Source: Candidatus Eiseniibacteriota bacterium (GTDB lineage: Bacteria; Eisenbacteria; RBG-16-71-46; JABDJR01). Taken from it: a stretch of 64,000 nucleotides of DNA. The first letter of the stretch is position 1. Each line of letters starts with the position of its first letter. Below, one piece after another: positions 30,385 through 63,322 of this stretch. A model generated the notes under the pieces. That model saw only the letters and a list, made by a program, of their open reading frames with translations, did no database searches and was not told the origin of the DNA. The stretch spans positions 1,120,001-1,184,000 of the forward strand of contig CAWANH010000029.1 in assembly GCA_963783375.1 (NCBI GenBank), read 5' to 3'. A program made the position numbers and the translations under genes.

Positions 30385-30497
30385 CGCCAGCGGCACTTGC
30401 GCCGCGGAACCCGCATCCCACTTTCTGGTACACTTGTTGCGTTCACTGCAACCAGATGCACGCATTTCTTGCGCTCAAACCCATGGGTACCCCCACC

Positions 30498-33400
30498 ATG
30501 CACGTTGGACGCCGCGCCGCTCTCTTTCTGCTGGCTTCGAACCTGCTCCTCACATTTCCGGCGGCTGCCTCCCCTTCCGAGGTGAGCCGGGATGTCCGCG
30601 TGGCGCCCGGTGACCTCGTCATCCGGGAAGCCGACGGCCTCACCCGGGTCGAACTGCGGGAGGGTTCATTGCTCCTCCCCGCGGGCAGTCCCGATCTTCC
30701 GGTCAAACCCATCGTCCTTCTCCTCCCCGAGGGGACCCGGGCCGCCTCGGTCCGGGTGACGCCCCTCGAGACCGCCGACATCCCGCTGGGCGGACCCCTG
30801 GCCGCGGTCGGCCCCGCCGCCGTCGACGGCGAGCCGAGTTCCCCACGCGCCGCCCGGGGGCAGGGCGGATCGTTCATTCCGGACGATCCGGTCGTCGGAT
30901 ACCACGGGGGCTCGATGCGGGGCCAACCGGTCGTCTCGGTCGTGGTGGCTCCGGTGAGCTGGCGCGCGTCGAGCGGGACGGTCCGGCTAATGACCCGGTT
31001 TCGAGTGACCGTCCTCCTCGAAGCGGCGGGCGAGGAACCAGGCCGACTCCGGATGCGCCGGGAGAGTCCGGAGGGGGAACGTACCTTCCGCGAGTCCCTC
31101 CGCGCGCTCACCGGTCGGGATCCCGACGCCATCCTCCATTTCAACGCTCCCCGGGGGGGAAGCGCCGGACGGCGCGGAGATCTGGCCCCCCAGGTCAACA
31201 GCGGCACGCCGGTCGGAGCCACCTACCGGCCTTCGGTGGACGGCGGTACCGTGGACATGGTCATCATCACGTCCTCGGAGCAAGCGGCGGAGTATCAACG
31301 CCTGGCCGACTTCAAGACCCGGACCGGTATCTACACCGTGGTCCGGACCCTGGACTGGATCCGGACCAACTACCCCGGGGGCGTGGACAAGCAGGAATCC
31401 ATCCGGCTCTTCATCCGCGACGCGGTATCCCAATGGGGCACCGCCTATGTGCTTCTGGGCGGCGATTCGGACGTTCTCCCCCCCCGGTACATCCACGCCG
31501 CGTCCCCCATCGTGGAGGACATCCCGACCGATCTCTACTTCAGCGACGTGGACGGCAACTGGAATGCGGACGGCGATTCGCAGTTCGGTGAGGCGCAGGC
31601 CACCGGAAAATCGGGAGATGCCGTCGACATGTACCCCGACGCCTGGGTGGGGAGGCTGCCCTCGCAAGACGCGGCCACGGCCTCGATCCTGGTGGACAAG
31701 ACCCTGGCCTACGAACAGGCTCCTCCGGCCGACACCCGAAACAAGGTGGTGTTCGCCAGCGAAGTGTTGAACCCGGGAACGTGGACGCCGGGTGCGACCG
31801 CGGTCTTCGACGGAGCCGCCGTCAGCGAGAGCGTCGTGGACAGCCTGGCGGCGGGGATCGTCCCCGTTCGACTCTACGAGAACTACACCGCGTGGCCGGG
31901 CGCGGTGGCCGAGAACAAGCAAGCGGTCATCGACTCGCTGAACCAGGGCTGCGCCTTCTTTCATCACATCGGCCACGGTCACACCAACGTGATGTCCCTG
32001 GGGATCGGTGGGCTGACCCTCACCAACTCCGATGTCGACGCCTTGCACAACGGGAACAAGACGTTCGTCCTCTACGCCAGCAACTGCATCTCGGCGGCAT
32101 TCGATTACAACTGCATCGGCGAACGTTTCCTGCTCAACCCGAACGGGGGCTCCGTCGCCGTCCTCGGATCCACCCGGGAGAGCTTCGCGGACACCCAGAC
32201 CGGCTGGATCCGCCAGTTCTACTCCCTGCTCTTCCGGCAAAAGGTGCTGGATCTGGGAAGGGCCGCGGGGTTGACCAAGGTGCCCTTCATCGGCGCGTCC
32301 AACTACGACGGTCCGCAGCGCTGGTCCGAGATGAGCCAGATCTACCTGGGGGACCCCAGCCTGTCCTACTGGCTCCTGGCTCCCGATTCGCTGGTGGTTT
32401 CCCACTCCCCGACCTTCTCCCTCGGACAGGGAACGTTCACCGTCGGGGTCGCCCGGAACGGATCCCCGGCGGCGGGGGCGCGGGTGGCCCTGGTGAAGGA
32501 CGGCGACGACTACGGGGCGGGCCTCACCGACGCGTTCGGCCAGGCGGTGGTGGCCTTCCATCCCGATATTCCCGGAACGGTGTCGGTGGGCGTATTCGAC
32601 GAAGGCGCCCTGCCGTCCTTCGGAACGGCTCAGGTCGTAGCTCCGCCGGGGGCGTTCCTCTTCGCCCAGAGCCAGGAGGTCGACGACGATCAGACCGCGC
32701 CCTCCTGGGGGAACGGCGATGGGGAATTCGACGCCGGCGAGACGGTGGAACTTTGGCTCACCATCGGTAACTCCGGCACCACCGCCACCGGTGCGTTCAG
32801 CGCCTCCCTCTCCAACTCCGACCCCTACCTGACGGTGGGAGACGGAGCCTCGTCCTTCGGCTCCATCGCGGCGGGGGCTACGGGCTTGGCCCTCGATCCC
32901 ATGGTCATCACCGTGGAACGCGGCTTCGGCGGGAAGCACGAAGCGCACGTGAGCCTGACCCTGTCCGGGCCCTCGGGGATCTTCATCCAGGACATCATCT
33001 TCTATCTCCACGGACCGGAGTACGAGTACCTCACCCAAACGATCAGGGACACGGTGGGAAACGGAAACGGCAACGGGTCGATCGAGCCTTCCGAGGATTT
33101 CTCCGTGATCCCCGAACTCGGAAACACCGGCCTGGGCGAGGCCTATCAGGTGACCGCCCGGCTTCGCTCCATCGATCCCGGGGTGACGATCACGGATTCG
33201 ATGAGCGTGATCGGCAACATCGCGCCCGGGACGACCGGCTCGAACCCCGCGGACGGATTCGTCCTCCGGCTGAACGATCCCGCTGCGGCCCACTCGATCT
33301 CGGTCGTAGTGGTCGACGCCTACGGCGAGGAGTCGACCTGGCCGGTGGAGTTCACCCCACCCGGCCCGGTGAGCGGTCTATTGGCATTCGGCGGAGCCAA

Positions 33401-35273
33401 TTCCATCGCTCTCGAGTGGACCCAGCCCGCGGATTCCGACCTGCGGAGCTACCTCGTATACCGGGCGCCGACCCCCTCCGGACCGTTCACCCGAGTGAAT
33501 TCCCGGATCAACGAACGAAGCGCGGTTTACGTGGACGAGTCCCTCTCTTCCCTGACCCGATTCTCCTACCGGGTGGCCGCGTTGGACTCCTCCGGCAACC
33601 AGGGTCCGTTATCCCCGGTGATCTCGGCCACGACCTCCCTCGCCATGCACGCGGGTTGGCCGGTGGAGGTCAAGACCGCCACGGTGGGAGGGGTGAGCCT
33701 GGCGCGGCTTGACGGCGCCGGGACTCCGGAAATCCTCGCCGGCGGGGAAGAGCTGTACGCCCTGACCGCCGATGGCGGCGAATACACCGACGGCGACCAC
33801 AGCAGCTCGACCCTGGGGCCGCTCACTCAAACCACGTCGACCGGGTTCTGGAATACGCCCTGTTCGGGCGACGCCCTGCATACCGGATACCAGGTGGTTG
33901 CCGCCGCGGGCTGGTCCGACTACCTCCTTCACGTCGTGGACCGCTTCGGCGCCGAACTTGCCGGGTGGCCCAAGAACATCGACGTGAACGGAACCGGCTC
34001 GATCAACCCCATCGGATCGCCGGCCATGGAGGATCTGGACGGCGACGGCCTGATGGAGATCACGATCACCGCGGGCAGGTGCATCTTCGCCTGGCACGCC
34101 GACGGCACCGAGCTCCGGGATGGGGATTCGAACCCCGCCACCGACGGCGTCCTGGCGGAGACCGGGACGCTCTATTCCTACGGCACCCCGAGCATTGCGG
34201 ACATCGACGGAAACGGCTCCCGAGAGATCATCGCCGGCATGCGGGACGGGAAGCTCTACGTCTTCAACGCGGACGGAACCCCCTATCCCGGGTTCCCATA
34301 CGTCACCGGGGGCGACATCACCATGGGTCCGGCGATAGGCGACATCGACGGGGACGGCCGGCAAGAGATCGTGTTCGGCTCCGGCGTCGACGCCAAGCTC
34401 TACGCCGTCCGCTATGACGGATCTTCCGCCGCCGGGTTTCCGGTGTCGTTGGCATTGAGCGGGGATTGGGATTCTTCCCCCGCCCTGGCCGACCTGAACG
34501 GGGACACCTATCCGGACGTGGTGGTCGGCGGATCCAGCGGCGGTGTCTATGCATTCAGCGGGGTGAACGGGTCCCCCCTCCCCGGCTTCCCCTTCCCCTT
34601 CACCGATGCCATGGGCAACCCGGTGAGCGTCCTCAGCTCCCCCGTGGTGGTCGATCTGGACGGGGATGGCGACCTCGATCTCGTGGTTGCCGATCATAGG
34701 GGCCGGGTGCACGCGATCTCGAGCACGGGGACCGAGTTACCGGGATTCCCGATCCAGACCGGCAACGCCACCGACACCACTCCCCTGGTCTGGGACGTGG
34801 ACGGAGACGGGCTGAGCGAGGTTCTGATCCAGTCCCTGGACCAGAGGGTCTATTGCTGGGACACGCCGTGGACCTTCGACGCGGCCCGCGCCCCCTGGCC
34901 CATGTTCAAGCACGACGAGCGCCACACCGGATGGGCGACCGATGAGATCCTCCAGGTTCTCGCCACCCCCTCCACCCCGGTCGCCGGGAGCGCCCTGCTC
35001 CAGCAGAACGCCCCCAACCCCTTCCGCGGCTCCACGGTGATCCGGTATCGAATCCCGGAGGGAGCCACCTACCAGAGCGTCAGGCTCCGGGTTTTCGACC
35101 TGAACGGACGGGTGGTGCGGAGCCTGATCGACGGGGAACAGCCTCCTGGCTCCTACTCGGCGTCCTGGGACGGGAGGGACGGCCGCGGGGTCCCGGTGGC
35201 CTCTGGGATCTACCTGTATCGTCTGGAGGCGGCGGGAAGGGCCCTATCCCGAAAGCTGGTCGTTCTCCAGTAG
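30498..35273 (+). CDS. Secreted C25 (gingipain-like) cysteine peptidase with propeptide, FN3, FG-GAP/VCBS repeats and FlgD-Ig tail
   Basis: YVLLGGD, TDLYFSD, WVGRLP, catalytic HIGHG and SNC; repeated DLDGDG motifs; WPMFKHD; NAPNPF...WDGRD...ASGIYLYRL. Confidence 0.92.
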   Translation: MHVGRRAALFLLASNLLLTFPAAASPSEVSRDVRVAPGDLVIREADGLTRVELREGSLLLPAGSPDLPVKPIVLLLPEGTRAASVRVTPLETADIPLGGPLAAVGPAAVDGEPSSPRAARGQGGSFIPDDPVVGYHGGSMRGQPVVSVVVAPVSWRASSGTVRLMTRFRVTVLLEAAGEEPGRLRMRRESPEGERTFRESLRALTGRDPDAILHFNAPRGGSAGRRGDLAPQVNSGTPVGATYRPSVDGGTVDMVIITSSEQAAEYQRLADFKTRTGIYTVVRTLDWIRTNYPGGVDKQESIRLFIRDAVSQWGTAYVLLGGDSDVLPPRYIHAASPIVEDIPTDLYFSDVDGNWNADGDSQFGEAQATGKSGDAVDMYPDAWVGRLPSQDAATASILVDKTLAYEQAPPADTRNKVVFASEVLNPGTWTPGATAVFDGAAVSESVVDSLAAGIVPVRLYENYTAWPGAVAENKQAVIDSLNQGCAFFHHIGHGHTNVMSLGIGGLTLTNSDVDALHNGNKTFVLYASNCISAAFDYNCIGERFLLNPNGGSVAVLGSTRESFADTQTGWIRQFYSLLFRQKVLDLGRAAGLTKVPFIGASNYDGPQRWSEMSQIYLGDPSLSYWLLAPDSLVVSHSPTFSLGQGTFTVGVARNGSPAAGARVALVKDGDDYGAGLTDAFGQAVVAFHPDIPGTVSVGVFDEGALPSFGTAQVVAPPGAFLFAQSQEVDDDQTAPSWGNGDGEFDAGETVELWLTIGNSGTTATGAFSASLSNSDPYLTVGDGASSFGSIAAGATGLALDPMVITVERGFGGKHEAHVSLTLSGPSGIFIQDIIFYLHGPEYEYLTQTIRDTVGNGNGNGSIEPSEDFSVIPELGNTGLGEAYQVTARLRSIDPGVTITDSMSVIGNIAPGTTGSNPADGFVLRLNDPAAAHSISVVVVDAYGEESTWPVEFTPPGPVSGLLAFGGANSIALEWTQPADSDLRSYLVYRAPTPSGPFTRVNSRINERSAVYVDESLSSLTRFSYRVAALDSSGNQGPLSPVISATTSLAMHAGWPVEVKTATVGGVSLARLDGAGTPEILAGGEELYALTADGGEYTDGDHSSSTLGPLTQTTSTGFWNTPCSGDALHTGYQVVAAAGWSDYLLHVVDRFGAELAGWPKNIDVNGTGSINPIGSPAMEDLDGDGLMEITITAGRCIFAWHADGTELRDGDSNPATDGVLAETGTLYSYGTPSIADIDGNGSREIIAGMRDGKLYVFNADGTPYPGFPYVTGGDITMGPAIGDIDGDGRQEIVFGSGVDAKLYAVRYDGSSAAGFPVSLALSGDWDSSPALADLNGDTYPDVVVGGSSGGVYAFSGVNGSPLPGFPFPFTDAMGNPVSVLSSPVVVDLDGDGDLDLVVADHRGRVHAISSTGTELPGFPIQTGNATDTTPLVWDVDGDGLSEVLIQSLDQRVYCWDTPWTFDAARAPWPMFKHDERHTGWATDEILQVLATPSTPVAGSALLQQNAPNPFRGSTVIRYRIPEGATYQSVRLRVFDLNGRVVRSLIDGEQPPGSYSASWDGRDGRGVPVASGIYLYRLEAAGRALSRKLVVLQ

Positions 35274-37514
35274 CGCTTGGTCGATCGAGGATACGCTTTC
35301 CGGGCCCCCGAACACCCGCCCGATCTGAACCGTGATGTTGTCGGGGCCTCCCCGGCTCCGGGCCAATTCCACCAGCCTCCGACAGGCTCCGCCGGGAGGA
35401 TCGGACATGACCACGTCCCGGATTTCCTCCTCGCTCACCACCTCCCAGAGCCCGTCCGAGCAGAGGAAGACCACGTCGCCGTCCGTCAGGCAAACCGGTT
35501 CGGGCGAGGCCTCCACCTCCAGTTCCTCTTTCTCTCCCAGACAGCGGGTCAGGATGTGACTCGGGATCATCGGTGACGGGCCGTCGTCCCCCGACGTCCG
35601 TCGCATCTCGGCGGCGAGATTGTGATCGCTGGTCAGTTGGGTGATCTCTCTCCTCGAGACCAGGTAGGCCCGGGTGTCCCCAACATGGGCCACGTACAGG
35701 TCGAGGCCGTGGAAGACCGCGGCGGTACAGGTGGTTCCCATCCCTCCCAGGCGATGACTCCCCGCCGCCCGGGCGTGGATCCTCTGATTGGCCCGATTCA
35801 TGGACTCCACCAGGGCGGCTCGCGGTCCCCCCTCGAGCATCAACGCGAAGTAGTCCGACGCGAATGCCTCGACCGCCATCCGGCTCGCCACCTCTCCCGC
35901 CGCCGCCCCCCCCATGCCGTCGGCCAGCACGAGAAGTCCTCCCGGAATATCCGCGCAGCCGGCCACGATGCCGAACGCGTCTTCGTTGTTGGCGCGCACG
36001 CATCCCCGGTCGGTTCGGGCCGCTGCTTCCAGGCGCAGGTTGCCGTCCTCGCTCAGGTACAGGGTCGCTTCCTCGGCCCGATTGTCGGGTTCGGGGAGTT
36101 CCAGCTCCGGAATCGCCGAGGATCCGTCGCCGCTTCCCCACTTCTCGGGAACCGCGATCTTGAATCCCCGCCGCTCCAGGTGGGCCTCCACCGCCCGCGA
36201 GGCGATTTCCCCCCGCGCGTACTTCTCCAGCTCCTCTTCCCCCAGCTCGACGAAGAGGGCGTCTTCGGAGTACAGGTCGATCAGGGCCTCCACCACGTCC
36301 GGGAAGAACTGGGAGCCGGCATGGGCGAGGAGTTCCTCGAAGGCGGCTTCGGGGGATAGGCCGCGCCGGTAGGGACGGTCCGAGGTCATGGCGTCGAAGG
36401 CGGCGGCGGCCATGATGATGCGGCTTCCCACCGGGATGGCGTCTCCCGACAGACCCCGTGGATAGCCGCGGCCGTCGGGCTGCTCGTGGTGGCAGTAGAC
36501 GATATCCGCGGTCTCCGGGAAGAATCTGAACCTCCGGATCATCTCGGCCCCGATGCGGGGGTGGGTCCTGAGAAGCGACTGCTCCGATTCGTCGAGCCGT
36601 CCCGGCTTGTCCAGAACCTCACGCTGGATGACGTTGCGGCCGATGTCGTGGAGAAGCGAGGCGTACTGGATGCCCTCGATTTCCCGGACGGGAAGCCCGA
36701 GGCGCCTTGCCACCGCGGTGGACATCGTGGACACCCGGAGACAGTGGCCCCGGGTGAATGGGTCGGTCGCGTCCACCTCGGACATGAGTTCACGGACCGA
36801 GGTGAGGTGGGTCCGCTTCGACTCCCGCCAGAGCTTCATGGCGTAACGGGTGACCAGGAGCGGAATCAGGAAGAGCGCCGAGCCCATCGGGCCGATCCGG
36901 ATCTGGGTGAGGGCGAGCAGGACCCCGAAAGGGAGGAGCAGGGCCTGGAACGCGCCCTCCGAAGCAATCGTACCGAACCCGGACTCACGCAGGCGTTTCG
37001 GGGACTGAAGCCCGAGGCCGACGGCGGAGAGAGTTCCCCAGGTCAAGAGATAGGCCGCGGCGGCGGCGACGAGAGACCCCACTTCACCGGGGTCGATGAA
37101 CAGGTCCGCTCCCGTCCTCCCCCCCATACCGACGTACACCGTCCCCGCCGCGCCAACCACCAACGCCGCCCGGCCCAAGCGGGCGATGCTCTTGGCCATG
37201 GGGTTCCATTTCTCGGCGATATTGGAGACCAGTCGGGCGTACACCGCGACCCAGCACGCGGTAAGGGGGCCGAAGACCAGGAGCGCGGCCAGATCCAGGG
37301 CCGCGGTGAGCCGCACGGTGCCGGAGCCGCGGGGGAGCGGGACCGGCGACATCGCCGCCACCGAGATCATGGCCAGCCACAGGATGAGGGTCGAAGTCGT
37401 ACCGGCGGCGCGCTCCACCTCCCCGGCCCCTGCCCCCATCGCGGCCAGCACGACGATGCCGGCGCCCAGGAGGGCCAGAGCGAAGAATCGGTACTTCAAG
37501 CTGGTGTGCATCAC
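35244..37514 (-). CDS. Membrane sensor - HD-GYP - PP2C Ser/Thr phosphatase fusion
   Basis: Multi-TM N-terminus; LLHDIGR, HHE, DGRGYP and DRPYR; PP2C motifs RANNED, ADGMGG, MGTT, HVGDTR, LCSDGL and GGPDN. Confidence 0.92.
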   Translation of the reverse strand: MMHTSLKYRFFALALLGAGIVVLAAMGAGAGEVERAAGTTSTLILWLAMISVAAMSPVPLPRGSGTVRLTAALDLAALLVFGPLTACWVAVYARLVSNIAEKWNPMAKSIARLGRAALVVGAAGTVYVGMGGRTGADLFIDPGEVGSLVAAAAAYLLTWGTLSAVGLGLQSPKRLRESGFGTIASEGAFQALLLPFGVLLALTQIRIGPMGSALFLIPLLVTRYAMKLWRESKRTHLTSVRELMSEVDATDPFTRGHCLRVSTMSTAVARRLGLPVREIEGIQYASLLHDIGRNVIQREVLDKPGRLDESEQSLLRTHPRIGAEMIRRFRFFPETADIVYCHHEQPDGRGYPRGLSGDAIPVGSRIIMAAAAFDAMTSDRPYRRGLSPEAAFEELLAHAGSQFFPDVVEALIDLYSEDALFVELGEEELEKYARGEIASRAVEAHLERRGFKIAVPEKWGSGDGSSAIPELELPEPDNRAEEATLYLSEDGNLRLEAAARTDRGCVRANNEDAFGIVAGCADIPGGLLVLADGMGGAAAGEVASRMAVEAFASDYFALMLEGGPRAALVESMNRANQRIHARAAGSHRLGGMGTTCTAAVFHGLDLYVAHVGDTRAYLVSRREITQLTSDHNLAAEMRRTSGDDGPSPMIPSHILTRCLGEKEELEVEASPEPVCLTDGDVVFLCSDGLWEVVSEEEIRDVVMSDPPGGACRRLVELARSRGGPDNITVQIGRVFGGPESVSSIDQALLENDQLSG

Positions 37515-37568
37515 GGGGATACGTCCTCCCTGTTCGGTCCCACGGAACCCGGACCTTTCATCCTCCTG

Positions 37569-37595
37569 TCATCGGCTCCTGGGCCTCGCGGCTGA
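37569..37595 (-). promoter_or_regulatory. Putative sigma-28-type promoter for the HD-GYP-PP2C gene
   Basis: TCAG-N15-GCCGATGA on the minus strand. Confidence 0.55.
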
Positions 37596-37621
37596 AGCCT
37601 GGAAAGGGGGCAGGACCCCCT

Positions 37622-37648
37622 CAAGGCGGGCCCCCAGGGAGCCGAAAA
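37622..37648 (+). promoter_or_regulatory. Putative sigma-28-type promoter for the GAF-HD-GYP gene
   Basis: CAAG-N15-GCCGAAAA on the plus strand. Confidence 0.5.
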
Positions 37649-37742
37649 CCCGAGAACAAGGTCCGGTCAGGCCGGGCCGTACGGCCCCGGGCCGATCCCC
37701 CCGGGCTTCGGGGCCATCCCTTGCCAATGGAGAGCCCTATCC

Positions 37743-39005
37743 ATGAGCGACGGCACCCATCGGAATCCGGCCGGGCCCGATCGGCAATCCTCGGGGGATT
37801 CGGACCGCATTTCGGTTCTTCACTCTCAATCGGTGTCGCGATTTTCCATGCTCCAGTCCGATCTGGTGGGGCTGGATACCCGAATGGCCGACCTGTTCCT
37901 CCGGTTCGCCACTCGGACCAGCGCGGCCCGGAACGACGAGTCCCGGCTCATGTCGGTGATCGGCGAGTTCACCTTCCAGGCCTTCCCGCGAGCCACTCAC
38001 CTGGTCGTGGCCCTGAGCGAACCCGGCGAGAGTGACGTCCGTCCCCTGGTCGCGGTGTCCCGAACCGGAGACGAGCCGGAGGTAAAGCTCAGCACCACCC
38101 TGATGCGCCGGGTGATCGAGGACGGCGTCGCCCTGCTCTACACGCCGGCGCAGTCCGGCTCCGAGTCCTCCACGAGCATCACCCTCTCCCGGATCCAAAC
38201 CGCCTTGTGCGCCCCCCTGTTCAGCATCGAGGATCCCTTCGGGGTGATTCAGCTCGACGTCCGCCATCCGGCCACCGGCACCTTCACCCGCAAGGACGTG
38301 GACCGGATCATCGTCTTCGCCCATCACGTGGCGCTGGTGCTGGACAATCTCCGGCTCTATCAGGAGCAACGCCGGGCCTTCGAGTCTACGATCCGGGCGC
38401 TGGTGCACTCGCTCTCCCTGAAGGATCCCGACACCGCCCATCACTCCGAACGGGTCCAGACCCTGGCCGTTCTGATCGGAGCGGAGATGGGGCTTCGCGG
38501 AAACGACCTGGAATCGCTGGGAGTGGCCGCGGTTCTCCACGACATGGGAAAGCAAGGGATCCGGGACGAAGTGCTGCTCAAGCCCGCCCGCCTGTCCAGC
38601 GTGGAGAGGGAGGAGATGTCCCGCCACTCCGAACTCACCCAGAACGTCCTCGACAAGATCGCCTATCCCCAGCACCTGCGTGACGTGCCCCTCTACGCCG
38701 CCTATCACCACGAAAAGATGAACGGCACCGGGCCCTATCGCATTCCCGGGGAGGAAATCCCCATCCAGGCCCGAATCATCTCGGTGGCCGACGTCTTCGA
38801 CGCCTTGTTCTCGGCTCGGGTGTACAAGGAGCCCAAACCGGTGGAGGAGGTGCTGGCCATCCTGGAGCGCGGCAAGGGGAAGGAATGGGACGCCCGGGTG
38901 GTGGATGCCGTCCGGGCCCTCGCCCCCCGCCTCCTGGCCCGGGTATACGACGCCTCGCCGGCGCCCCGGGGATCGGACGGGATTCCGGGCCGTCAGGCGG
39001 CCTGA
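37743..39005 (+). CDS. GAF + HD-GYP domain protein
   Basis: GAF motifs LCAPL...GVIQLD...FT.KD; HHSERV, LHDMGK, HHEKMNGTGPY and SVADVFDAL. Confidence 0.92.
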   Translation: MSDGTHRNPAGPDRQSSGDSDRISVLHSQSVSRFSMLQSDLVGLDTRMADLFLRFATRTSAARNDESRLMSVIGEFTFQAFPRATHLVVALSEPGESDVRPLVAVSRTGDEPEVKLSTTLMRRVIEDGVALLYTPAQSGSESSTSITLSRIQTALCAPLFSIEDPFGVIQLDVRHPATGTFTRKDVDRIIVFAHHVALVLDNLRLYQEQRRAFESTIRALVHSLSLKDPDTAHHSERVQTLAVLIGAEMGLRGNDLESLGVAAVLHDMGKQGIRDEVLLKPARLSSVEREEMSRHSELTQNVLDKIAYPQHLRDVPLYAAYHHEKMNGTGPYRIPGEEIPIQARIISVADVFDALFSARVYKEPKPVEEVLAILERGKGKEWDARVVDAVRALAPRLLARVYDASPAPRGSDGIPGRQAA

Positions 39006-39035
39006 TCCCCCCCCGGATGCGCCGGCCGCCGGGAA

Positions 39036-40106
39036 TCAGGCCGCTTCGGCGCGGGCCAGCGAACGCTCGAACTGGCTGGGGTCGATGGCGTGGTCGTAGG
39101 CCTCCTCGCCGGTGATGACGCCCTTCCGCACCAGCTCCCGGAGTTCGGCGTCCAGGCTCTGCATGCCGATCCCGCGTCCGGCCTGGATCACCGAGGTCAA
39201 CTTGTGGCCGTTCCCCGCGCGAATCATCGAGGCGGCCGCGGGGTTGTTGACCAGGATCTCGGCCACCGCCAGCCGTCCCGAACCGTCCGCTCGGCTCACC
39301 AGTTGCTGGGAGATAACCATGCGCAGGCTTTCGGCCAGCATGCTCCGGATCTGCTCCTGGCGGCGGGCCGGAAACACGTTCACGATCCGGTCGATGCTTC
39401 GCGAGGCCCCGCTGGTGTGGAGGCTCCCCAGGACCTGGATCCCGGTCTCCGCCGCGGTGAGAGCCAGGGCGATGGTCTCGACGTCTCGCAGCTCCCCCAC
39501 CAGGATCACGTCGGGGTCCTCGCGGATCGCGTGGCGAAGCGCTTCCGAGAAATCGGGAGCGTGAACCCCGATCTCGCGCTGGGTGACCAGGGAAAGCCGG
39601 TACCCGTGAACGAACTCGATCGGGTCCTCCACCGTGATCACATGCCCCTTCCGGGTGGCGTTGATCTCGTTCACCATGGCGGCCAGGGTGGTCGACTTCC
39701 CGCACCCGGTGGGTCCGGTGGCCAGGGTAAGGCCCTTGGGCTGGGAACAGATCAGCTTGAGCACGGCGGGGAGCCCCAGGTCGTCCAGCACCGGCACCTG
39801 GGCCGGGATCACCCGGAGCGCGACGCCCAGGCCTTTCTGGTGGCGATAGGCGTTGACCCGGAACCGTCCCAGTTCCTGAACCTCGTAGCCGAAATCCACC
39901 GAGAGATGCCGGGCGAGCCGCTCCCGCTGCGCCTCGGTGGTGAACTCCTCCAGTACCCGCTCCATGTCCTCCACCGAGAGCTCGCGGAACCTCACCTTGT
40001 GGAGCACGCCGTTGATGCGAATGCGGGGGGACTGGCCCGAAATCATGTGGAGGTCCGAGCCTCCCTGCTTCACCGCCAGCTCCAGGAAGGTGTTGATCCG
40101 GCTCAT
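39036..40106 (-). CDS. pilT: PilT/PilU-family type IV pilus retraction-type ATPase
   Basis: SDLH, GRFRVN, Walker A GPTGCGKST, EDPIEF, REDPDVILVGELRD and GMQS motifs. Confidence 0.92.
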   Translation of the reverse strand: MSRINTFLELAVKQGGSDLHMISGQSPRIRINGVLHKVRFRELSVEDMERVLEEFTTEAQRERLARHLSVDFGYEVQELGRFRVNAYRHQKGLGVALRVIPAQVPVLDDLGLPAVLKLICSQPKGLTLATGPTGCGKSTTLAAMVNEINATRKGHVITVEDPIEFVHGYRLSLVTQREIGVHAPDFSEALRHAIREDPDVILVGELRDVETIALALTAAETGIQVLGSLHTSGASRSIDRIVNVFPARRQEQIRSMLAESLRMVISQQLVSRADGSGRLAVAEILVNNPAAASMIRAGNGHKLTSVIQAGRGIGMQSLDAELRELVRKGVITGEEAYDHAIDPSQFERSLARAEAA

Positions 40107-40119
40107 CGGTTCACCTCGC

Positions 40120-41247
40120 TCATGCCGCGTCTTCCTTCCCGGCGACGTCCGGCGCCGCTCCGCCGCCCCCGAACAGACTCTTGAGCTCGGGCCGGGTGAC
40201 GAACCGGGTAAACTCCCGCTTGTCGTTGGCCAGGATGAACGCCTCGTCGGGATCGATGTTCCCGGCCTGGACCATGCTCAACAGGGCCTGGTCCATGAGC
40301 TGCATCCCCGCCCGCCGTCCGGTCGCGATCACGCCGGGAATCTGGAAGGTCTTTCCCTCGCGGATGAGCTGGGACACCGCCGCGTTCACCACCAGGATCT
40401 CGCAGACCGCTCGTCGTCCCCGCCCGTCGGAAACCCGCACCAGCTCCTGGCTCACCACGCACTTCAGGTTCTCGGCCAGGGTGTGACGGATCTGGGACTG
40501 GACCTCGGCGGGAAAGGAATCCACGATGCGGTGGATGGTCTGGTAGGCGCCCCGGGTGTGGAGCGTCCCCAGAACCAGGTGTCCGGTCTCCGAGGCCTCG
40601 ATGGCCAGCGAGATCGTCTCGAAGTCCCGGAGCTCCCCCACCAGGATCACGTCGGGATCCTCCCGCAACCCGGCCCGCAAACCGTCGTGGAACGTGTGCA
40701 CGTGGGTTCCCACCTCACGCTGGACGATGAGCGCCATCTTGCTCTCGTGGACGAACTCGATCGGCTCCTCAAGGGTGAGGATGGTCACGTTGCGGGTGCG
40801 GTTGATCTCTTCGATGATCGAGGCCAAGGTGGTGGACTTTCCGGTCCCCGACCCTCCGGTGACCAGCACCAACCCCGCGTTCAGACCGGTGAATCGGGAG
40901 ATCACGTTGGGGAGCCCCAGGTCGGCGAGGGCCGGCGCATGATCGGGAACCACCCGGCAGATGATGGCGAGCCCGGTCCGATGGCGGCAGACGTTGACCC
41001 GGAAGCGGCCCACGTCCTGGGCGGTGTAGGAGAGGTCCACCGCTCCCTTGACCCCGAGAGCGTCCCAATGCTCGGGGCCAAGAATCTCGCCGGCCAGCCC
41101 GTCGATCTCCGCCGCCTCCAGCTCCCGGTGATCGAGCGAGAGCAGCTCTCCGTCCAGGCGGACGAGGGGGGCGCGCCCCGCGGTCAGGTGGATGTCCGAA
41201 CAGCCCTGCTCCCGGCCGAGCCGGAGGAAGCCATCGATTTCAGGCAT
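40120..41247 (-). CDS. pilT: PilT/PilU-family ATPase (second paralog)
   Basis: SDIH, GRFRVN, GGSGTGKST, EEPIEF, REDPDVILVGELRD, TGHLVLGTLH and LIREGK; start overlaps the kinase stop (ATGCCTGA). Confidence 0.92.
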   Translation of the reverse strand: MPEIDGFLRLGREQGCSDIHLTAGRAPLVRLDGELLSLDHRELEAAEIDGLAGEILGPEHWDALGVKGAVDLSYTAQDVGRFRVNVCRHRTGLAIICRVVPDHAPALADLGLPNVISRFTGLNAGLVLVTGGSGTGKSTTLASIIEEINRTRNVTILTLEEPIEFVHESKMALIVQREVGTHVHTFHDGLRAGLREDPDVILVGELRDFETISLAIEASETGHLVLGTLHTRGAYQTIHRIVDSFPAEVQSQIRHTLAENLKCVVSQELVRVSDGRGRRAVCEILVVNAAVSQLIREGKTFQIPGVIATGRRAGMQLMDQALLSMVQAGNIDPDEAFILANDKREFTRFVTRPELKSLFGGGGAAPDVAGKEDAA

Positions 41248-43657
41248 GTCGCCTCCGAGGTTCGAGTGGGGAGGCATCGAGGAGATCCCGGATCCTCTCT
41301 CCCAGTTCCGCCGCGCTCCCGATGCGTTCGTCCGGTTCGCGGGCCATGGCCGCCGCGGTAAGGGCCTCGATTTCCGGCGGCACCCCCTCGGAAAGCTCGC
41401 TCATGGGCCGCGCCTCCCCTTCGAGGTGCTGGAAGAGGATCTTGACCGGGGTTTCGGCGGTGAACGGGGGCCGCCCGGTGATCATCTCGTAGAGGACGAT
41501 GCCCAGGCCGTACACGTCGACCCGGTGATCGGCTTCCTCGCCGCGGATCTGCTCGGGGGCCATGTACTCGGGGGTCCCGATCAGGAGCCCGCTCTTGGTG
41601 AGCCGGGACCCGACCCTCTGCTCGGCCCACGCCAGGCCGAAGTCCACGATCTTCACCTCGTCGTCCACTCCCACCAGGATGTTCCCGGGCTTGATGTCCC
41701 GGTGCACCACCCCCGCCTCGTGGGCCGCGACCAGACCGTCGCAGGCCTGCGCCAGAATGCCGAGCGAACGCCAGGGATCGAGCTTCCCCGCCTCGGTCAG
41801 GACCTTCCCCAGGTCTCGCCCCGGGAAATACTCCATGGACACCGCGTGCGCGCCGCCCAGATCGATCAGGTCGTAGATGCGGATCACGTTCCGGTGGGTG
41901 ATCTTCCGGGTGAGCTTCAGCTCCTGCACGAAACGACGGATGGCCCCTTCATCCTCGGAGAGGTGGGAGTTCAGGATCTTGAAGATGATGCGGTCCTGGA
42001 CCGCGGTGTCCTCGACCAGGTAGATGGCTCCGAACCCTCCCCGACCGATCCGCTGGACCACGCGATACCGGTTGAGTAGCTCCATCCCCGGGGACAGCTC
42101 GCGGAAGTTGGTGGAGGGGTCCTTGTCCGCCTCGGGGCGTCGCGCCCCGGGGGGAACCGATCCGATGGCCGCGAACGGCGAATCCCCCGAACCCGCGGTC
42201 ACCGGGAACGGCAGGCCCGTTCCGGAACCCTGGTGTCGCTTGCCTTCGACCTGGAGCGGCATGTCGGCGCGCGCCTCGGACTCGGGGCCGATCCGGGCCG
42301 CCCCCAGGGCGTCGTTCACCCGGCGTCGTTCCTCCGCGTCGAGGTCGGCGCTGGAGAGCAGCTTCAGGGCGGAAGCGGCTTCGCGCCGGATCTCCTCGCT
42401 CTCGGACTTCGCGAGCCGGCTCAGGGGCTCCAGCGCCCGGGGATCGCCGATCGCGCCCAGGGCGCGGGCGCAGAGCGGAGCCACCGTCGAATCGGCGGCC
42501 ATCAGATCCATGAGCGGCTCCACCGCGCGCGTATCGCGGGTGCGGGCCAGGGCGTCGATCGACCGTTCCCGGACCCACCAGTCGGAGTCGCCCAGGGCCC
42601 GGATCAAGGGCTCCACCGCGCGCGCGCTGGGAATCGCGTTCAGGATCTCCACCGCGTACCGGCGAACGAACTCGTCCTCTTCTCCGAGCAGGCCGAGCAC
42701 CGCTTCCACCACCCGCTCCCCTCCCAGGCTCCCCAAGGCGTCGGCGGCTCGCACCCGCACCCACCAGTCCTCGTCCCGGAGCGCCCGCACCAGGTCCTGG
42801 ACCGCCTCGGTGGTGGCCACCTCGTTCAGGACCTCCACCGCGGCCCGGCGGGAGTACTCGGACTCGTCCTTCAGGATCTCCAGGAGGTACGGCACCGCGG
42901 AGGAGTCTCCAAGCTCGATCACCGCGTCGATGACCTCGGTCTGCACCTTGAGATCCTCGTCCCGGAGCGCCCGCACCAGATCGCCGATCTGCGAACGCGC
43001 TTCCATCTGGCGGAGCGACCGCACCGCTTCCAGACGGACGCTCTTGTGCTCGTCCTGGAGCGTGGCAATCAGGGCGGGAGCCACCCGTTCGGCGTCGAAC
43101 CGGGCCAGGAGCTTCACCATGTAGAGGCGGATCCACCAGTCCTCGTGGCGGAGGAGTTCGACCATGGGAGCCAGCACGGACTCGTCCGCGTTTCGCTCCA
43201 GGAGCCGAAACACCACCCCCCGGGCCTCCTTGCTGAGACCGGGCAGGACCGCCACCAGCTTTCGCGGGGGCATGTGCGGAGCCTGCGCGGTGAGGATTCC
43301 CTCCAGTACCCCCCTGGGCAAGGTGCGGTCGGCGAGGAGATCGATGAGCCGCTCGGGATCGTACCCCCGGCCCCGCTCCAGTACCTGGGCCACCCCGGAA
43401 ACCACGGCGGGGTTCGGGGAAGAGAGGGCATCCAGATAGGCGGGCAGGGTCTCGTCTTCGAGAAGGCGGGCGAGGATCTCCTGGGCGGGTCCGCGAGCTT
43501 CACCGTGGCTCAGGCAGTCCAGGACGCGAGGAAGCGTGGGCGCGCCCAAAGCCACCAGGTCCTCTTGGGCCCGGCCCAGCGCCGCGGGAGAGACGGAGCG
43601 GGAGACCTTGAGCCTCCGAACGCACCGTCCCGCTCTGAACTCATTGAGCAGGTTCAT
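41240..43657 (-). CDS. HEAT-repeat (PBS-lyase-like) Hanks-type Ser/Thr protein kinase
   Basis: About 8 repeats of ~31 aa of the DxDWWVR type; kinase motifs GRGGFG, K, HRDIKPGN, DFG, GTPEYMAPE and DVYGLG; no TM seen. Confidence 0.94.
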   Translation of the reverse strand: MNLLNEFRAGRCVRRLKVSRSVSPAALGRAQEDLVALGAPTLPRVLDCLSHGEARGPAQEILARLLEDETLPAYLDALSSPNPAVVSGVAQVLERGRGYDPERLIDLLADRTLPRGVLEGILTAQAPHMPPRKLVAVLPGLSKEARGVVFRLLERNADESVLAPMVELLRHEDWWIRLYMVKLLARFDAERVAPALIATLQDEHKSVRLEAVRSLRQMEARSQIGDLVRALRDEDLKVQTEVIDAVIELGDSSAVPYLLEILKDESEYSRRAAVEVLNEVATTEAVQDLVRALRDEDWWVRVRAADALGSLGGERVVEAVLGLLGEEDEFVRRYAVEILNAIPSARAVEPLIRALGDSDWWVRERSIDALARTRDTRAVEPLMDLMAADSTVAPLCARALGAIGDPRALEPLSRLAKSESEEIRREAASALKLLSSADLDAEERRRVNDALGAARIGPESEARADMPLQVEGKRHQGSGTGLPFPVTAGSGDSPFAAIGSVPPGARRPEADKDPSTNFRELSPGMELLNRYRVVQRIGRGGFGAIYLVEDTAVQDRIIFKILNSHLSEDEGAIRRFVQELKLTRKITHRNVIRIYDLIDLGGAHAVSMEYFPGRDLGKVLTEAGKLDPWRSLGILAQACDGLVAAHEAGVVHRDIKPGNILVGVDDEVKIVDFGLAWAEQRVGSRLTKSGLLIGTPEYMAPEQIRGEEADHRVDVYGLGIVLYEMITGRPPFTAETPVKILFQHLEGEARPMSELSEGVPPEIEALTAAAMAREPDERIGSAAELGERIRDLLDASPLEPRRRHA

Positions 43658-43721
43658 CCGCGATCATCCTCGCGAGTCGACGGGTCGGCCCGCGGCGGGT
43701 GAAGGGCCGACCCGGCCGGGA

Positions 43722-44333
43722 TCAACCCCGGCCCAGGAACCACAGACCGGCCCCACCCACCAGCACCCCCACCAGGAAGGAGATGATCAGGAGGAGCGTT
43801 ACGGCGGCGTTCGAGAACCCGGTTCGCACGGTCTGCGCGGACATGGAGGCCGGCCTCTCGGTCCCGTCCTGCTCGCGATACTCCGAAGCCAGGTTCTCGA
43901 GTTCCACGGTGGAGAGCACGGTGGTGCCCTGAAAGGCGGTGGGGGTCAACTGCCGCGTGTCCCCCGCCTGGTGGCCGCGGCGTTCGTCCTCGTAGCTGAT
44001 CCAGAGGGAGAACTTCCCGATGTGCAGAACGTCGTTCTCCATCAGGACTTCGCGCTTTGCCTGGATCATCTTCTCGTTCAGGACGGTGCCGTTGGCGCTC
44101 CCCAGATCCTCGGCCTCGTAGTAGCCCCGGGGGACGGCGTGGAGCCGCAAGTGGTGGCGGGACACCCCGGGATTGTCCAGAAAGACATCGCTGTCCGGGT
44201 CCCGACCCACCGTGACCATCTCCTGTTTGAAACGATAGGAGCGGATCGGCCTCCCCTTCAGGGAGAGCCGCACCTTGAGAACCTTGGTTCCCGGCTGAGG
44301 GGCTCCGTCGCTTACGTGTTCGGGCAGTCCCAT
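43722..44333 (-). CDS. FHA domain protein with C-terminal membrane anchor
   Basis: VGR...VSRHH...DLGSANGT FHA motifs; C-terminal hydrophobic helix; alternative GTG start at 44342. Confidence 0.9.
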   Translation of the reverse strand: MGLPEHVSDGAPQPGTKVLKVRLSLKGRPIRSYRFKQEMVTVGRDPDSDVFLDNPGVSRHHLRLHAVPRGYYEAEDLGSANGTVLNEKMIQAKREVLMENDVLHIGKFSLWISYEDERRGHQAGDTRQLTPTAFQGTTVLSTVELENLASEYREQDGTERPASMSAQTVRTGFSNAAVTLLLIISFLVGVLVGGAGLWFLGRG

Positions 44334-44382
44334 CGTGTCCACGCCTCCTTCCTGCGCGCGAGGTTCGATACGCCTCGTGTCG

Positions 44383-44409
44383 TTATCGGCACGCCGGATA
44401 TGGGGTTTA
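44383..44409 (-). promoter_or_regulatory. Consensus sigma-28 (FliA/WhiG-type) promoter for the FHA-kinase-pilT-pilT operon
   Basis: Exact TAAA-N15-GCCGATAA on the minus strand; weaker tandem site CCAA-N15-GCCGATAG at 44492-44466. Confidence 0.75.
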
Positions 44410-44691
44410 AGGCCGCGAGGCGTCGGCGGGGCAACGGGGACGGCTCGCGGGGTGGGGGGACGGGCCTATCGGCTTATCCGGCAAGAAGTTGGAGCTTTCG
44501 AGGACCTCCGGCCGCTCCCCGAGACCCCGACGTGGACGCCGGCGCGCCGCCCATCGGGCAAAGGGATTTGCGTTATCCACCGCATTTCGCCCGGCCGCGG
44601 GTGCTTAATCAAGTGGGCTCATGGCGATGGGGTCGCCCGCGGAGGCAGGCGGCCAGCCGGTTTCTCGTGGAAGGCGGAGGCGGGGAGTTCG

Positions 44692-47600
44692 ATGGACGAG
44701 GCTCTCGGGCGGGAAGGCCGATCTTCTCCGGAGCCCTCCTCCGGGGCGGCGGGGGGAGACGGCGCCCGGGCGCGGGCGATCGCCGACCAGTTCGAGGTCG
44801 CCCTGGGCTGCCCCGATGCGGTGACCGCGGCCCTGGCCGGAATCCTGGCGGGGACCGGTACCCTGCCCACCGGGCGCGAGAAGACGCTCCTCGGCCTGGC
44901 TCCCCTGCTTCGGCGGCGCACCGGGGCGGTGGCCGCCGCGCTCTTCGACGGTCTGTCCTCCGCCCTGGACCGCCTCCCCGATCCCCGGCCGCTCCTTCTG
45001 GAACTTCTTCGCACCCGGGATCCCGAACTGCTTTCCCGCGCGCTCGCCCACACGGAACGCCTGGTCGCGGCGAAGGCCGTTCATCCGGACCGCCGACTGC
45101 TGGCCTTCTTCGCCGAGCGATTCGAGGAACGCGGCGGGCTTTGGGAGCGCCCCGAGACCCTGAATCGCGTGGCCGAACTGGTGGAATCCTCCGGCCCTTC
45201 TCCGCCCTGGACCGATTTGCTGACCGATCCCGCCGACCCCGGTAGCGCCCGGTTGGCCGCGCGAGCCCTCGACCGGCACGGGGAACCCGCCCCCCCCGGG
45301 GTCGCCCGGCGGATCCTCGGGGAGGTGGCCTACGCATTTCTCGCCCCCTACCTGGCCTACACCCGGGCCGGCCATGCCGATCTCCTGGCCCTGGTCCCCC
45401 GCCCCGGCGCCCCGCCGCCGGCGCTCGCCGCCCTCCGCCGGGCGGCCGAGCGATGCGGCGAGAGCGCCCTCCGGGACATCGTGGCCCGGTTGGGCTGGCC
45501 GGCCGTGAACCTGGGGCTCGAGGCGGGGCCGGTATGGGAGGTCTCGCTGGCGGGAGCCTTCCCGTACCTGATGTCCCCGGAAGAAGCGCCGCTCCTCGAA
45601 GCGGTGGGCGAGACCCGGAAACACGGCGAGGCGATCCTCGCGGTGGCTCACGGCGGAGCGCCCGACCCCGGACGGGAGGGGCCGGGAGCCGAGGACCCGG
45701 TGGCCCGCTTTCGGGCCATGAACCTGGTCCACGCCGAGCTTCTGGCCGAGATCCTCGACGTCTCCCCCCTCACCCCGGAGAAGGTGCGCCGGATCCTCGG
45801 TGGGATGGACCGGATCGTCGCCGATTTCGTCGGAGTCTTCGCCCGCCACGCCGAGGACGAGGCGGCGGCGCTCCCCGGTCTCTACGCCGCACTCAAGGGT
45901 CGGGTCGAGGCGGAGCTCACCCCCGAGTCCCGCCCCGCCCAGCTCTCTGCCGAACTCACCCGGCTGGTCCAGGCCTTCGAAGACCCCCAAAGCCTCGCCG
46001 AGGTTCGCACCCTCCACGGCCTCAAGCGCTACCTCCACCAGCGGGGCCTCCGCCTGGGGTTCCGCCTGGTCGAGGCCGGACGCGCCACCAACCGGAGCGT
46101 CCGGGTTCTGGTGCTTCGGCCCCGGCGGGAGCCGCCGTCCCCGGTCGTCCTTCGCTACGTGGATTTCGAGCCCGGGGACTACGCGCCGGACTCCGCCCCC
46201 CCGGTTCCCTATCCGGTTCGGGCCCTGGCCGAAGGGATTTCCCGGCAGCTCCTTGTGGGAACATTGGAGTTTCCTGACGTTAAAATATTTTGCTATGGCA
46301 ACGAGGTCCACTACTACCTCGCTTTCGGCACCCATCCCGCGTTCCTCCGGGTGGACTACGCGCCGCCGCTCCGGGGGGGCATGGTCGACCTCGAGTACTA
46401 CGGGGTGAGCAAGGTGGATCTGGGGGCGCATCCCGACCCCAGCCTGGCCGGTATCCGCCTCCTCCTCGAACGGCTCGATTTCGACGTCACCATCGACGCC
46501 ACCCGGGTCCATGCCCGCTACGACAAGGAGCGGGCGCTGGATCTCGGAGAGCTGTGCGAGCACGCCGAGGCCCTCCTCCGTCTCCTCCCCCACGTGATGG
46601 ACGTGGACTGGACGATCGGGTCGCTCCGGCTCTCGCCGGCGGCGCGGTGCGCGACCGCGGAGGCCTGGGCGGAGTTCTTCCTGCGCTGGGGGTCGCTTCC
46701 GGTCGAGCGCTTCCTCACCGACGACCGGGTGGGGATCACCACCGGGCGGGAGACGGGCCCGGCCGGAGACCGCGAAACGGTGTGGGACGGCCGGGGGCCC
46801 TACCGCGACCGGTACCGCCCCGCCCCCGCGGCCCGGGATTTCCTGCCGCTGGTGGAGAGCCTGGGGGCCGGGGGCCGGGCGATTGCCGCGGAACTGGAGT
46901 CGGCGGGGGGTGAACCGATGGGGCAACTCGCCCTGGAGCGGCTCGTGCTCCGCCCGCTCCACGAGGCGGCGGGAGAACCCTCCGCCGGGGCCACGCACTC
47001 CGGGAGGCGACCCGGCGGCCCGCCTCCCCACGAGGCCGAGCGATTCGCACACATCCTGGAGGGAGGCGTGGAGCCGGTCGCCGCCGCGGCGCGCGCGGCG
47101 GCCCTGGTCGCCCCGCTCACCCGAAGCCTCCGCTTCCGGACCACCGGGTCGGTGGAGGGTTTTGCCACCCAGCACGCGGTGGTTCCCCTTCGAGGGGCCC
47201 GCCTGGACGCACACGTGCTCCGCGATCCCTCGGGGCTGATCCGCCTCGCCTACTTCACCGGAGTCGGAAGAGACGGCCGGCGGAGGCTCGGGGGAGTGGG
47301 GTGGCCCGGCGAAGCCGGTCCGGAGGAGGGAACCGCGATCACCGGAGAAGGGACCGGCGCCGGCGATCCGGGGCTCGACGCCGCGCGCCTGGCCGCCCTC
47401 CTCCGGCGAAACAGCTACCCCGTGGTCGAGACCGGGGGGAGCGATTCGGAGGTGGAAGCCGAAGCCCGTGAAACGCTCGCCGCGGTCGGGCGCTCCGCCC
47501 ACCTCCCCCGTCCCCGACCCATCCCCGGAGAGCGATTGGTCACCGGGCTCCGCGCTTCCCCCGGCCGCGCGGTGGGGCGGGCGGTTCTCGATGCGGCGGG

Positions 47601-58786: not shown

Positions 58787-58882
58787 TGGATAAAAGTGAC
58801 TGGTAATATTACCCGACAGGAGATGTCGGTTTTTCTGCCAATGGAGGAGCAGCCCCGGGCCGGAGCATCCCGATCCCCGGAT

Positions 58883-60628: not shown

Positions 60629-60671
60629 GGTGCAATCCGTCCCCGGCGGAACCGGCGGCGCCCCGAACCCA

Positions 60672-63321: not shown

Positions 63322-63322
63322 G

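Follow-up and report, generated by a model that had tools for sequence, protein, structure and literature searches.

Why should a soluble serine/threonine kinase be encoded so tightly with two PilT-family ATPases that its stop codon overlaps the start codon of the first of them? The question is raised by a 9 kb locus in a stretch of 64,000 nucleotides (the window, whose positions are used throughout) from a Candidatus Eiseniibacteriota bacterium (assembly GCA_963783375.1, contig CAWANH010000029.1, positions 1,120,001 to 1,184,000). The locus encodes a tail-anchored FHA protein, a HEAT-repeat Hanks kinase, two PilTs termed PilT-K1 and PilT-K2 (K1 and K2), a GAF-HD-GYP protein and a membrane HD-GYP-PP2C protein. 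An interpretation made from the letters alone (the sequence-only reading) had taken these six open reading frames for a self-contained, uncharacterised circuit in which threonine phosphorylation and a HEAT scaffold gate a PilT motor, and it is partly supported by our analysis. All six frames carry the domains assigned to them (Pfam and TIGRFAM scores), and the overlap noticed between the kinase stop and the ATG of K1 spans 8 nucleotides. The genes for the HEAT kinase, K1 and K2, in this order, are a locked core that is inherited as a unit across two phyla, and FHA, HD-GYP and PP2C proteins are optional partners of that core.

The core comprises the kinase (41240-43657, minus strand; 805 residues; HEAT_2 E 5e-52, Pkinase E 2e-47; soluble, with no transmembrane segment), K1 (PilT-1; 40120-41247, minus strand; 375 residues) and K2 (PilT-2; 39036-40106, minus strand; 356 residues). 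From 113 de-duplicated loci, 34 with short flanks were removed, and in all 79 that were kept (flank of at least 3.5 kb) K1 and K2 follow the kinase. A full-length kinase orthologue was found in 16 of 41 related genomes, the source genome included, and these same 16, and no others, have a K2 score of 550 bits or more. Of 401 gammaproteobacterial genomes sampled evenly, 51 encode the kinase, each in a single copy; K1 reaches at least 525 bits in 50 of the 400 genomes scored, all of them kinase carriers, and in 0 of the 349 others. The carrier that was missed (G275) has a contig end falling inside K1, and the sole borderline K1 match without a kinase (G271) is a canonical pilT. Both PilT profiles were built partly from genomes later scored, so that what carries information is the lack of matches in the remaining 349 and 25 genomes. 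When species-representative genomes were scanned with the HEAT arm, at least 581 relatives were recovered, the best 80 of which come from Eisenbacteria, Krumholzibacteria and Gammaproteobacteria; in a plasmid collection the kinase had no match and the PilTs were of the ordinary type only. Three loci outside the 79 depart from the pattern: L090 and L152 carry the kinase without adjacent PilTs, the genome of the latter (G220) keeping K1 and K2 in tandem on another contig, and L091 carries a shortened kinase and no PilTs.

The partners recur less regularly. An FHA protein is encoded near the core in 59 of the 79 loci (24/25 Eisenbacteria-type, 35/54 Gammaproteobacteria-type), an HD-GYP protein in 36 (21/25 and 15/54) and a PP2C in 18 (7/25 and 11/54), with all three present in nine. 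The association is thus conserved elsewhere, which counts in favour of the sequence-only reading, but only the kinase, K1 and K2 are invariant. The FHA protein is upstream and membrane-anchored in Eisenbacteria-type loci, whereas it is downstream and soluble in Gammaproteobacteria-type loci, and the PP2C is fused in one phylum and free in the other. These shifts in position and architecture argue for repeated selection rather than frozen synteny. In some loci the FHA domain is fused to an HD-GYP enzyme or to a cyclase. In some Gammaproteobacteria, K2 is immediately followed by a class III cyclase-FHA gene (L164:13662-14552; also L154, L156, L165, L167, L176 and L177), sometimes accompanied by a retropepsin-like protease. 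A further recurrent neighbour, DUF6812, is found near the core in 43 of the 54 gammaproteobacterial loci and in none of the 25 Eisenbacteria-type ones, and it was not found in the genome studied here. Its gene (about 155 codons; e.g. L060:9506-9982) stands directly upstream of the kinase and also occurs beside kinase-free PilTs of the MARID type (L182, L183 and L195). A fold search with DUF6812 indicated two small barrels with only weak Sm/Hfq-like matches (best Z 4.4), a lead rather than a finding.

Both PilTs are members of TIGR01420, scoring 406 (K1) and 418 bits (K2) against a cut-off of 319, and both keep Walker A, the Asp box and Walker B. In K1 the His box is likewise intact, with H223 present in 86 of 86 sequences, and the protein ends in a clade-specific tail, F-x-x-F-V-T351-x-P-x-L, with serine or threonine at position 351 in 92% of K1 sequences compared with 3% of other PilTs. 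The motif AIRNLIRE, which modelling places at the interface with PilC (bioRxiv 2025.10.30.685630), reads AVSQLIRE in K1 and AAASMIRA in K2, where R296 is invariant. These fixed and complementary differences fit two specialised subunits, which may possibly assemble into a heteromer. Single-chain PilT-PilT "fusions" (P0269; the second junction of P0270, P0272 and P0275) were considered as evidence for a heteromer and rejected, as by eye they resemble frameshift or read-through artefacts.

Trees were built from subsets of about 18-27 K1/K2 pairs. In these, K1 and K2 sequences fall into two distinct clades (support 100/100 and 100/99, respectively), each clade spans both phyla, and the two subtrees divide identically by phylum. 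Both lie outside canonical PilT, outside PilU, whose rows form a separate 100/99 clade, and outside the PilT linked to pilB in this genome. The dedicated PilT clades that would set this pair apart from ordinary retraction motors are therefore real. The position of the root among the PilT clades differed from tree to tree, and we rely solely on the separation of canonical PilT/PilU from the K1/K2/MARID side. On that side, K1 and K2 share a 100/99 branch with two other groups, the kinase-free PilTs of the MARID type and three mshE-linked PilTs of metagenomic origin. The latter serve as proxies for PilT3 of Geobacter sulfurreducens; they were found by a match to the pilT3 primer and by mshE synteny, GSU0436 itself is absent from the tree, and none of the three is GSU0436, as they lack the reverse-primer site. 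The identities of one proxy, 58% with canonical PilT and 48% with the pilB-linked type, resemble those reported for PilT3 (56% and 49%; PMC5065972). The identity of K2 to canonical PilT is about 47-48%. In the kinase-free MARID PilTs of the same class (L186, L194, L195, L196, L197 and L182/L184), the first His-box histidine is replaced by glutamine, and the genes are followed by one of 370-500 codons whose start we take to resemble DUF4388.

The kinase consists of HEAT repeats (residues 1-453) and a Hanks kinase domain (residues 526-795, approximately). It contains all motifs of an active Hanks kinase (Gly loop, catalytic Lys/Glu, HRD..N, DFG and xPE), and K560, E579, HRDxKPxN and DFG are invariant in 86 orthologues. 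An AlphaFold2 model (pLDDT 88.9) shows an all-helical repeat arm and a disordered linker (463-512), and structure comparison places the kinase domain nearest to PknB, including the PknB-GarA complex 6i2p. What the arm might bind is suggested by natural fusions. At least 119 proteins, mostly of about 940 residues (P0389-P0507), combine the HEAT and PilT families; the search set out from longer K1 relatives, which gave three fusions among 120 (P0270 and P0272 included), one of which was used as the query. Among the matches listed, the named hosts are Myxococcales, Polyangia, Deltaproteobacteria and Thermoanaerobaculaceae. The fused PilT sits on the K1/K2 side of the tree. A DWWxR motif is present in 86/86 kinases and in 119/119 of the fusions listed, compared with 3/113 generic HEAT proteins, and a profile of the fusion arm scores the kinases at a median of 98 bits versus 50 for generic HEAT proteins. 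A strict three-repeat regular expression matched only 26 of the 86 kinases, and a HEAT-arm profile search of 1.84 billion representatives was dominated by generic HEAT proteins and served as a control set only. That at least 119 proteins join this arm and a sister PilT in one chain suggests that the arm docks on the motor, and there is good indirect evidence that it works on a PilT. The proposed HEAT scaffold has thereby gained independent support, with docking itself a deduction from the fusions.

Upstream of the kinase, the FHA protein (43722-44333, minus strand; 203 residues, with GTG at 44342 as an alternative start; Pfam PF00498, E 2e-16) consists of the FHA domain, a linker and one C-terminal transmembrane helix (residues 176-194), with almost nothing past the membrane. 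Its residues for phosphothreonine binding (G43, R44, S58, R59, H61, N81, G82 and N86) are invariant in 31 of 31 sequences, so that it has the G-R, S-x-x-H and N-G-T residues of a phosphothreonine reader. T137, outside the FHA domain, is equally invariant (31/31) and is followed by L140 in at least 90%. FHA domains prefer a particular residue at pT+3. The soluble gammaproteobacterial FHA proteins have a matching [P/A]-T-M-F-[ILV] motif in 42 of 50 rows, a group that included two Eisenbacteria-type rows and several unrelated FHA proteins. From this conservation, T137 of the T137-x-x-L140 linker motif (43914-43925, minus strand) is predicted to be both the phosphoacceptor and the ligand of the protein's own FHA domain.

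Two HD-GYP proteins complete the locus, and they differ in what they are likely to do. The GAF-HD-GYP gene (37743-39005, plus strand; 420 residues, or 385 if starting at 37848) is on the plus strand, convergent with K2 and divergent from the PP2C gene, and hence lies outside the operon; a promoter/terminator scan returned no match. Its active site is kept in 16 of 16 rows (equivalents of PmGH H189, H221, D222, K225, H250, H276, H277, D305 and D308). The GYP motif reads GPY, and GYP mutants of PmGH retained activity (PMC4159591). The protein is predicted to be a phosphodiesterase of cyclic di-GMP (c-di-GMP). FHA-GAF-HD-GYP forms occur in some other loci; the window copy has no N-terminal FHA domain and retains an S/T-V-L motif at the aligned position. 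The membrane HD-GYP-PP2C protein (35244-37514, minus strand; 756 residues) has at least four hydrophobic segments. Its membrane domain matched no Pfam family and may be MASE9-like. In alignment with 4MCW, its HD-GYP domain is degenerate (PmGH D305 to A, K225 to R), with GYP and RxYR kept. Across 29 module-linked HD-GYP rows, which are not fully de-duplicated and from which one unrelated REC-HD-GYP row was dropped, D305 is lost in 28, K225 is replaced by arginine in 27 and H189 is absent in 18, and GYP and RxYR largely remain; D305 is retained in all five of the genome's other HD-GYPs. The D305A mutant of PmGH has strongly reduced activity and the K225A mutant has none, the exchange of K225 for arginine not being among the mutants reported there (PMC4159591). 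Given these changes and mutant effects, the membrane domain is likely a c-di-GMP sensor and probably not a phosphodiesterase, so that of the two cyclic-dinucleotide domains originally suggested, one has an intact active site and the other is degenerate. In the PP2C domain, which exceeds the Pfam cut-off, all metal-binding motifs (R..ED, DG, DG and DN) were located; with NF033484 it scores 190 bits, under the cut-off of 230.

The window encodes no PilB by the TIGR02538 profile and no PilC or pilins as judged solely by reading the gene calls, as had been stated. The same genome has a pilB-pilT-pilC-pilS-pilR-pilin cluster (C29:168-176 kb, about 990 kb from the locus; PilB by score over the cut-off, the other names from inspection of the sequences) and encodes PilT at four additional loci. 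The description as self-contained consequently applies to the locus only, and K1 and K2 are additional motors rather than the sole one. Five gammaproteobacterial carriers that were checked likewise have their own canonical PilT/PilU. PilB is over the cut-off in 48 of the 51 module-bearing Gammaproteobacteria, and two of the three misses have weaker or partial matches, which is compatible with a role in pili but weak evidence for it.

We propose, at slightly less than even confidence, that the kinase with K1 and K2 forms an accessory motor for retraction, whose activity is switched by phosphorylation of threonines and which acts in trans on the main type IVa pilus. Starting from a kinase, K1 and K2 that travel as one unit with their catalytic motifs kept, the mechanism would proceed as follows: (i) the HEAT arm, judging by the natural HEAT-PilT fusions, would dock the sensor-less kinase on K1/K2; (ii) the kinase, as the conservation of both sites suggests, would phosphorylate the membrane-anchored FHA protein at T137 and possibly K1 at T351 of its tail; (iii) phospho-T137 would fold back on its own FHA domain, as in GarA/OdhI, and a free FHA domain would recruit the phosphorylated motor or the kinase to the inner membrane; (iv) K1/K2, as a mixed ring or a stacked pair like PilT/PilU, would couple to the PilC platform and supply a second, conditional motor for retraction; (v) the PP2C would reset the switch under control of the degenerate, probably c-di-GMP-binding HD-GYP domain, and the GAF-HD-GYP protein would lower c-di-GMP, which would close a loop between motor state and second messenger. 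More tentative still is the fuller picture of an obligately heteromeric K1/K2 ATPase, held by a dedicated HEAT arm, switched by threonine phosphorylation and reset by a c-di-GMP-sensing phosphatase, as a third PilT branch beside PilT and PilU.

Several observations weigh against this proposal. In the reverse of the fusion-arm comparison, a profile of the kinase HEAT repeats scored the fusions (median 120 bits) no higher than generic HEAT proteins (up to 181). PilB is over the cut-off in 21 of 29 module-free controls (taken from about 350 negatives) and, being common without the module too, discriminates little; in none of the loci read does a pilus structural gene accompany the core. In neither 86-sequence set does the canonical AIRNLIRE rank with the commonest variants, and K2 has an isoleucine in place of the first His-box histidine (I223; His at 223 in 0/86, H230 in 86/86), although H222A affected twitching only mildly in Pseudomonas aeruginosa PilT (PMC10187167). 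In 19 of the 54 gammaproteobacterial loci, the core has neither FHA nor HD-GYP nor PP2C close by, and genome G013 carries a second, divergent cassette of K1, K2 and HD-GYP genes (L180, C1:5883000-5899000) without a kinase or FHA protein. Finally, the mshE-linked proxies appear to be PilT3 orthologues, and K1/K2 Geobacter-PilT3-like, by way of a primer match, synteny and identities and not through GSU0436.

The same data can be read with the flow of information reversed, which is the main rival and does not exclude an accessory motor. K1 and K2 would then be sensor ATPases that tell the kinase of pilus load or nucleotide state via the HEAT arm, with little or no retraction, and the kinase would pass the signal on by phosphorylating c-di-GMP phosphodiesterases and cyclases that bear FHA domains. 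Apart from the HEAT arm, the kinase lacks both a sensor domain and a transmembrane segment, the interchangeable neighbours include just such output enzymes (FHA-GAF-HD-GYP and cyclase-FHA), AIRNLIRE is lost in both ATPases, and PilT of P. aeruginosa has been linked to surface sensing (PMC10187167). Yet K1 and K2 retain Walker A/B and the second histidine, PilT3-like sisters can drive retraction, and the phosphodiesterase of the window has lost its FHA domain; overall, we regard this possibility as unlikely, though deserving serious attention. Further removed from pili, K1 and K2 could power another substrate, for instance a secretion platform or protein remodelling, with the HEAT arm as a scaffold. 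The missing linkage to pilus genes and the degenerate PilC-binding motif would agree with this, as would the weakly Sm/Hfq-like DUF6812 partner of many gammaproteobacterial loci, even though cyanobacterial Hfq itself binds a pilus ATPase, PilB1 (PMC4390875). Since PilB accompanies nearly all carriers, the nearest characterised type of relative is a retraction motor and the neighbourhoods hold no conserved gene for an alternative substrate, we consider a pilus-independent motor improbable.

Whether the partners belong to the circuit at all is a separate matter. If the kinase, K1 and K2, perhaps with the FHA protein, were the whole system, the HD-GYP and PP2C proteins would be lineage-specific neighbours with separate jobs and the circuit would have been over-read, as the low counts for PP2C and for the full set, the restriction of the PP2C fusion to some Eisenbacteria-type loci and the strand of the GAF-HD-GYP gene might indicate. 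This, too, seems a rather poor prospect to us, because both phyla have PP2C and HD-GYP repeatedly encoded next to the core, in differing positions and architectures, HD-GYP is near the core in most Eisenbacteria-type loci, and a degenerate HD-GYP accompanies even the kinase-less K1/K2 copy in G013. Mere chance clustering of common signalling genes would be conceivable in a genome with at least 24 kinase matches. However, genome-wide domain profiles of 3752 called genes found only seven HD-GYP, three FHA and two PP2C proteins, and the locus contains two, one and one of these, respectively. With gene order conserved across two phyla in 79/79 loci and near-perfect co-occurrence (16/41; 50/51 vs 0/349), chance has already been refuted and retains hardly any credibility.

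Every part of the module comes from a known family, and the combination is undescribed as far as our literature searches reach, in line with the original view of an uncharacterised system. A full-text search, with subscription journals largely outside its coverage, found no paper combining PilT, HEAT repeat, threonine kinase and FHA and none naming DUF6812; titles and abstract openings on PilT paralogues, on PilT with HEAT repeats or gene neighbourhood, and on HD-GYP with PilT did not describe the module either. Like the PilT/PilU tandem of type IVa pili in P. aeruginosa and Vibrio cholerae, K1 and K2 are two adjacent TIGR01420 ATPases, and K1 has a clade-specific C-terminal tail as does PilU (bioRxiv 2025.10.30.685630). 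Unlike PilT/PilU, they fall in separate clades, lack AIRNLIRE and, in K2, the first His-box histidine, and are locked to a kinase. PilT3 (GSU0436), whose proxies share the K1/K2 superclade and an N-terminal MARID start, is an accessory motor, and a pilT mutant of P. aeruginosa regained retraction and twitching when given PilT3 (PMC5065972); in contrast to K1/K2, PilT3 is encoded by a single gene behind mshE with no kinase neighbour described. The extra PilT paralogues MXAN_6705/6706 of Myxococcus xanthus are comparable by description only; deletion of MXAN_6706 partly impairs S-motility (PMC13584747).

For the signalling proteins, the closest parallels lie in other systems. Type VI secretion systems (T6SS) have a threonine-phosphorylation pathway of the PpkA kinase, Fha1/TagH and PppA. 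There, as here, writer, reader and eraser stand beside a component of an envelope machine, but the kinase of our locus is a soluble HEAT protein rather than a membrane sensor kinase, and its client would be a PilT-family ATPase. The FHA protein scores 35 bits with TagH (TIGR03354; cut-off 120), and neighbour clustering, in which no dedicated T6SS scan was made, gave no cluster of T6SS genes among the recurrent neighbours. The GarA/OdhI switch with PknB/PknG likewise pairs an FHA domain with a conserved threonine motif outside it (ETTS in GarA; PMC12321487) and a PknB-like kinase fold. In our case, the motif is C-terminal to the FHA domain, the protein is membrane-anchored, and its score with the OdhI family is 55 against a cut-off of 200. 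DvhD of Desulfovibrio (PDB 9RBZ) is a membrane HD-GYP protein that has lost metal ligands and binds c-di-GMP (PMC13090378); the protein described here differs in keeping the HD motif, with only the D305/K225 equivalents changed, and in having PP2C as its output domain.

Control of type IV pilus motors is attributed to chemosensory His/Asp relays, cyclic nucleotides and small adaptor proteins. Effects of Ser/Thr phosphorylation on pili are scattered, such as phosphorylation of Thermus PilF and the action of Synechocystis SpkA (reviews PMC10145908 and PMC4390875), and in a search of a 2024 review of PilB cofactors, the mentions of phosphorylation concerned histidine-kinase relays and "FHA" did not occur (PMC11656802). 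If the fuller picture of a third, kinase-wired PilT branch holds, this would be the first case of a type IV filament motor with a dedicated Ser/Thr switch of its own, the HEAT arm being fused to the kinase here and, in myxobacteria-like genomes, to the motor; the branch would be present in about one eighth of the sampled gammaproteobacterial genomes. A conserved kinase-motor unit with predicted phosphosites (T137 of the FHA protein and T351 of K1) makes kinase switching of a pilus motor directly testable and bears on why many bacteria retain at least four PilT paralogues.

Next to the locus, a C25 (gingipain-family) peptidase of 1605 residues with FG-GAP repeats and a C-terminal FlgD-Ig domain is encoded at 30456-35273 on the plus strand; the convergent HD-GYP-PP2C gene overlaps it by 30 nucleotides at its 3' end, and the neighbour is conserved only as far as the closest relative. 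On the other side (44335-52088) and at about 58800-64000, a PEP-utiliser/PPDK-N gene is represented by two overlapping open reading frames, and malic-enzyme-like and glycogen/trehalose genes, named by reading the sequences, look broken across frames, so that frameshift errors in the assembly may be present there. Elsewhere in the genome, contig C15:1-11344 duplicates C29:1016900-1030600, which carries an mshE-like gene and a PilT. On C29, both the mshE-like gene and a large gene upstream of it are called in fragments, which suggests assembly errors or strain variation.

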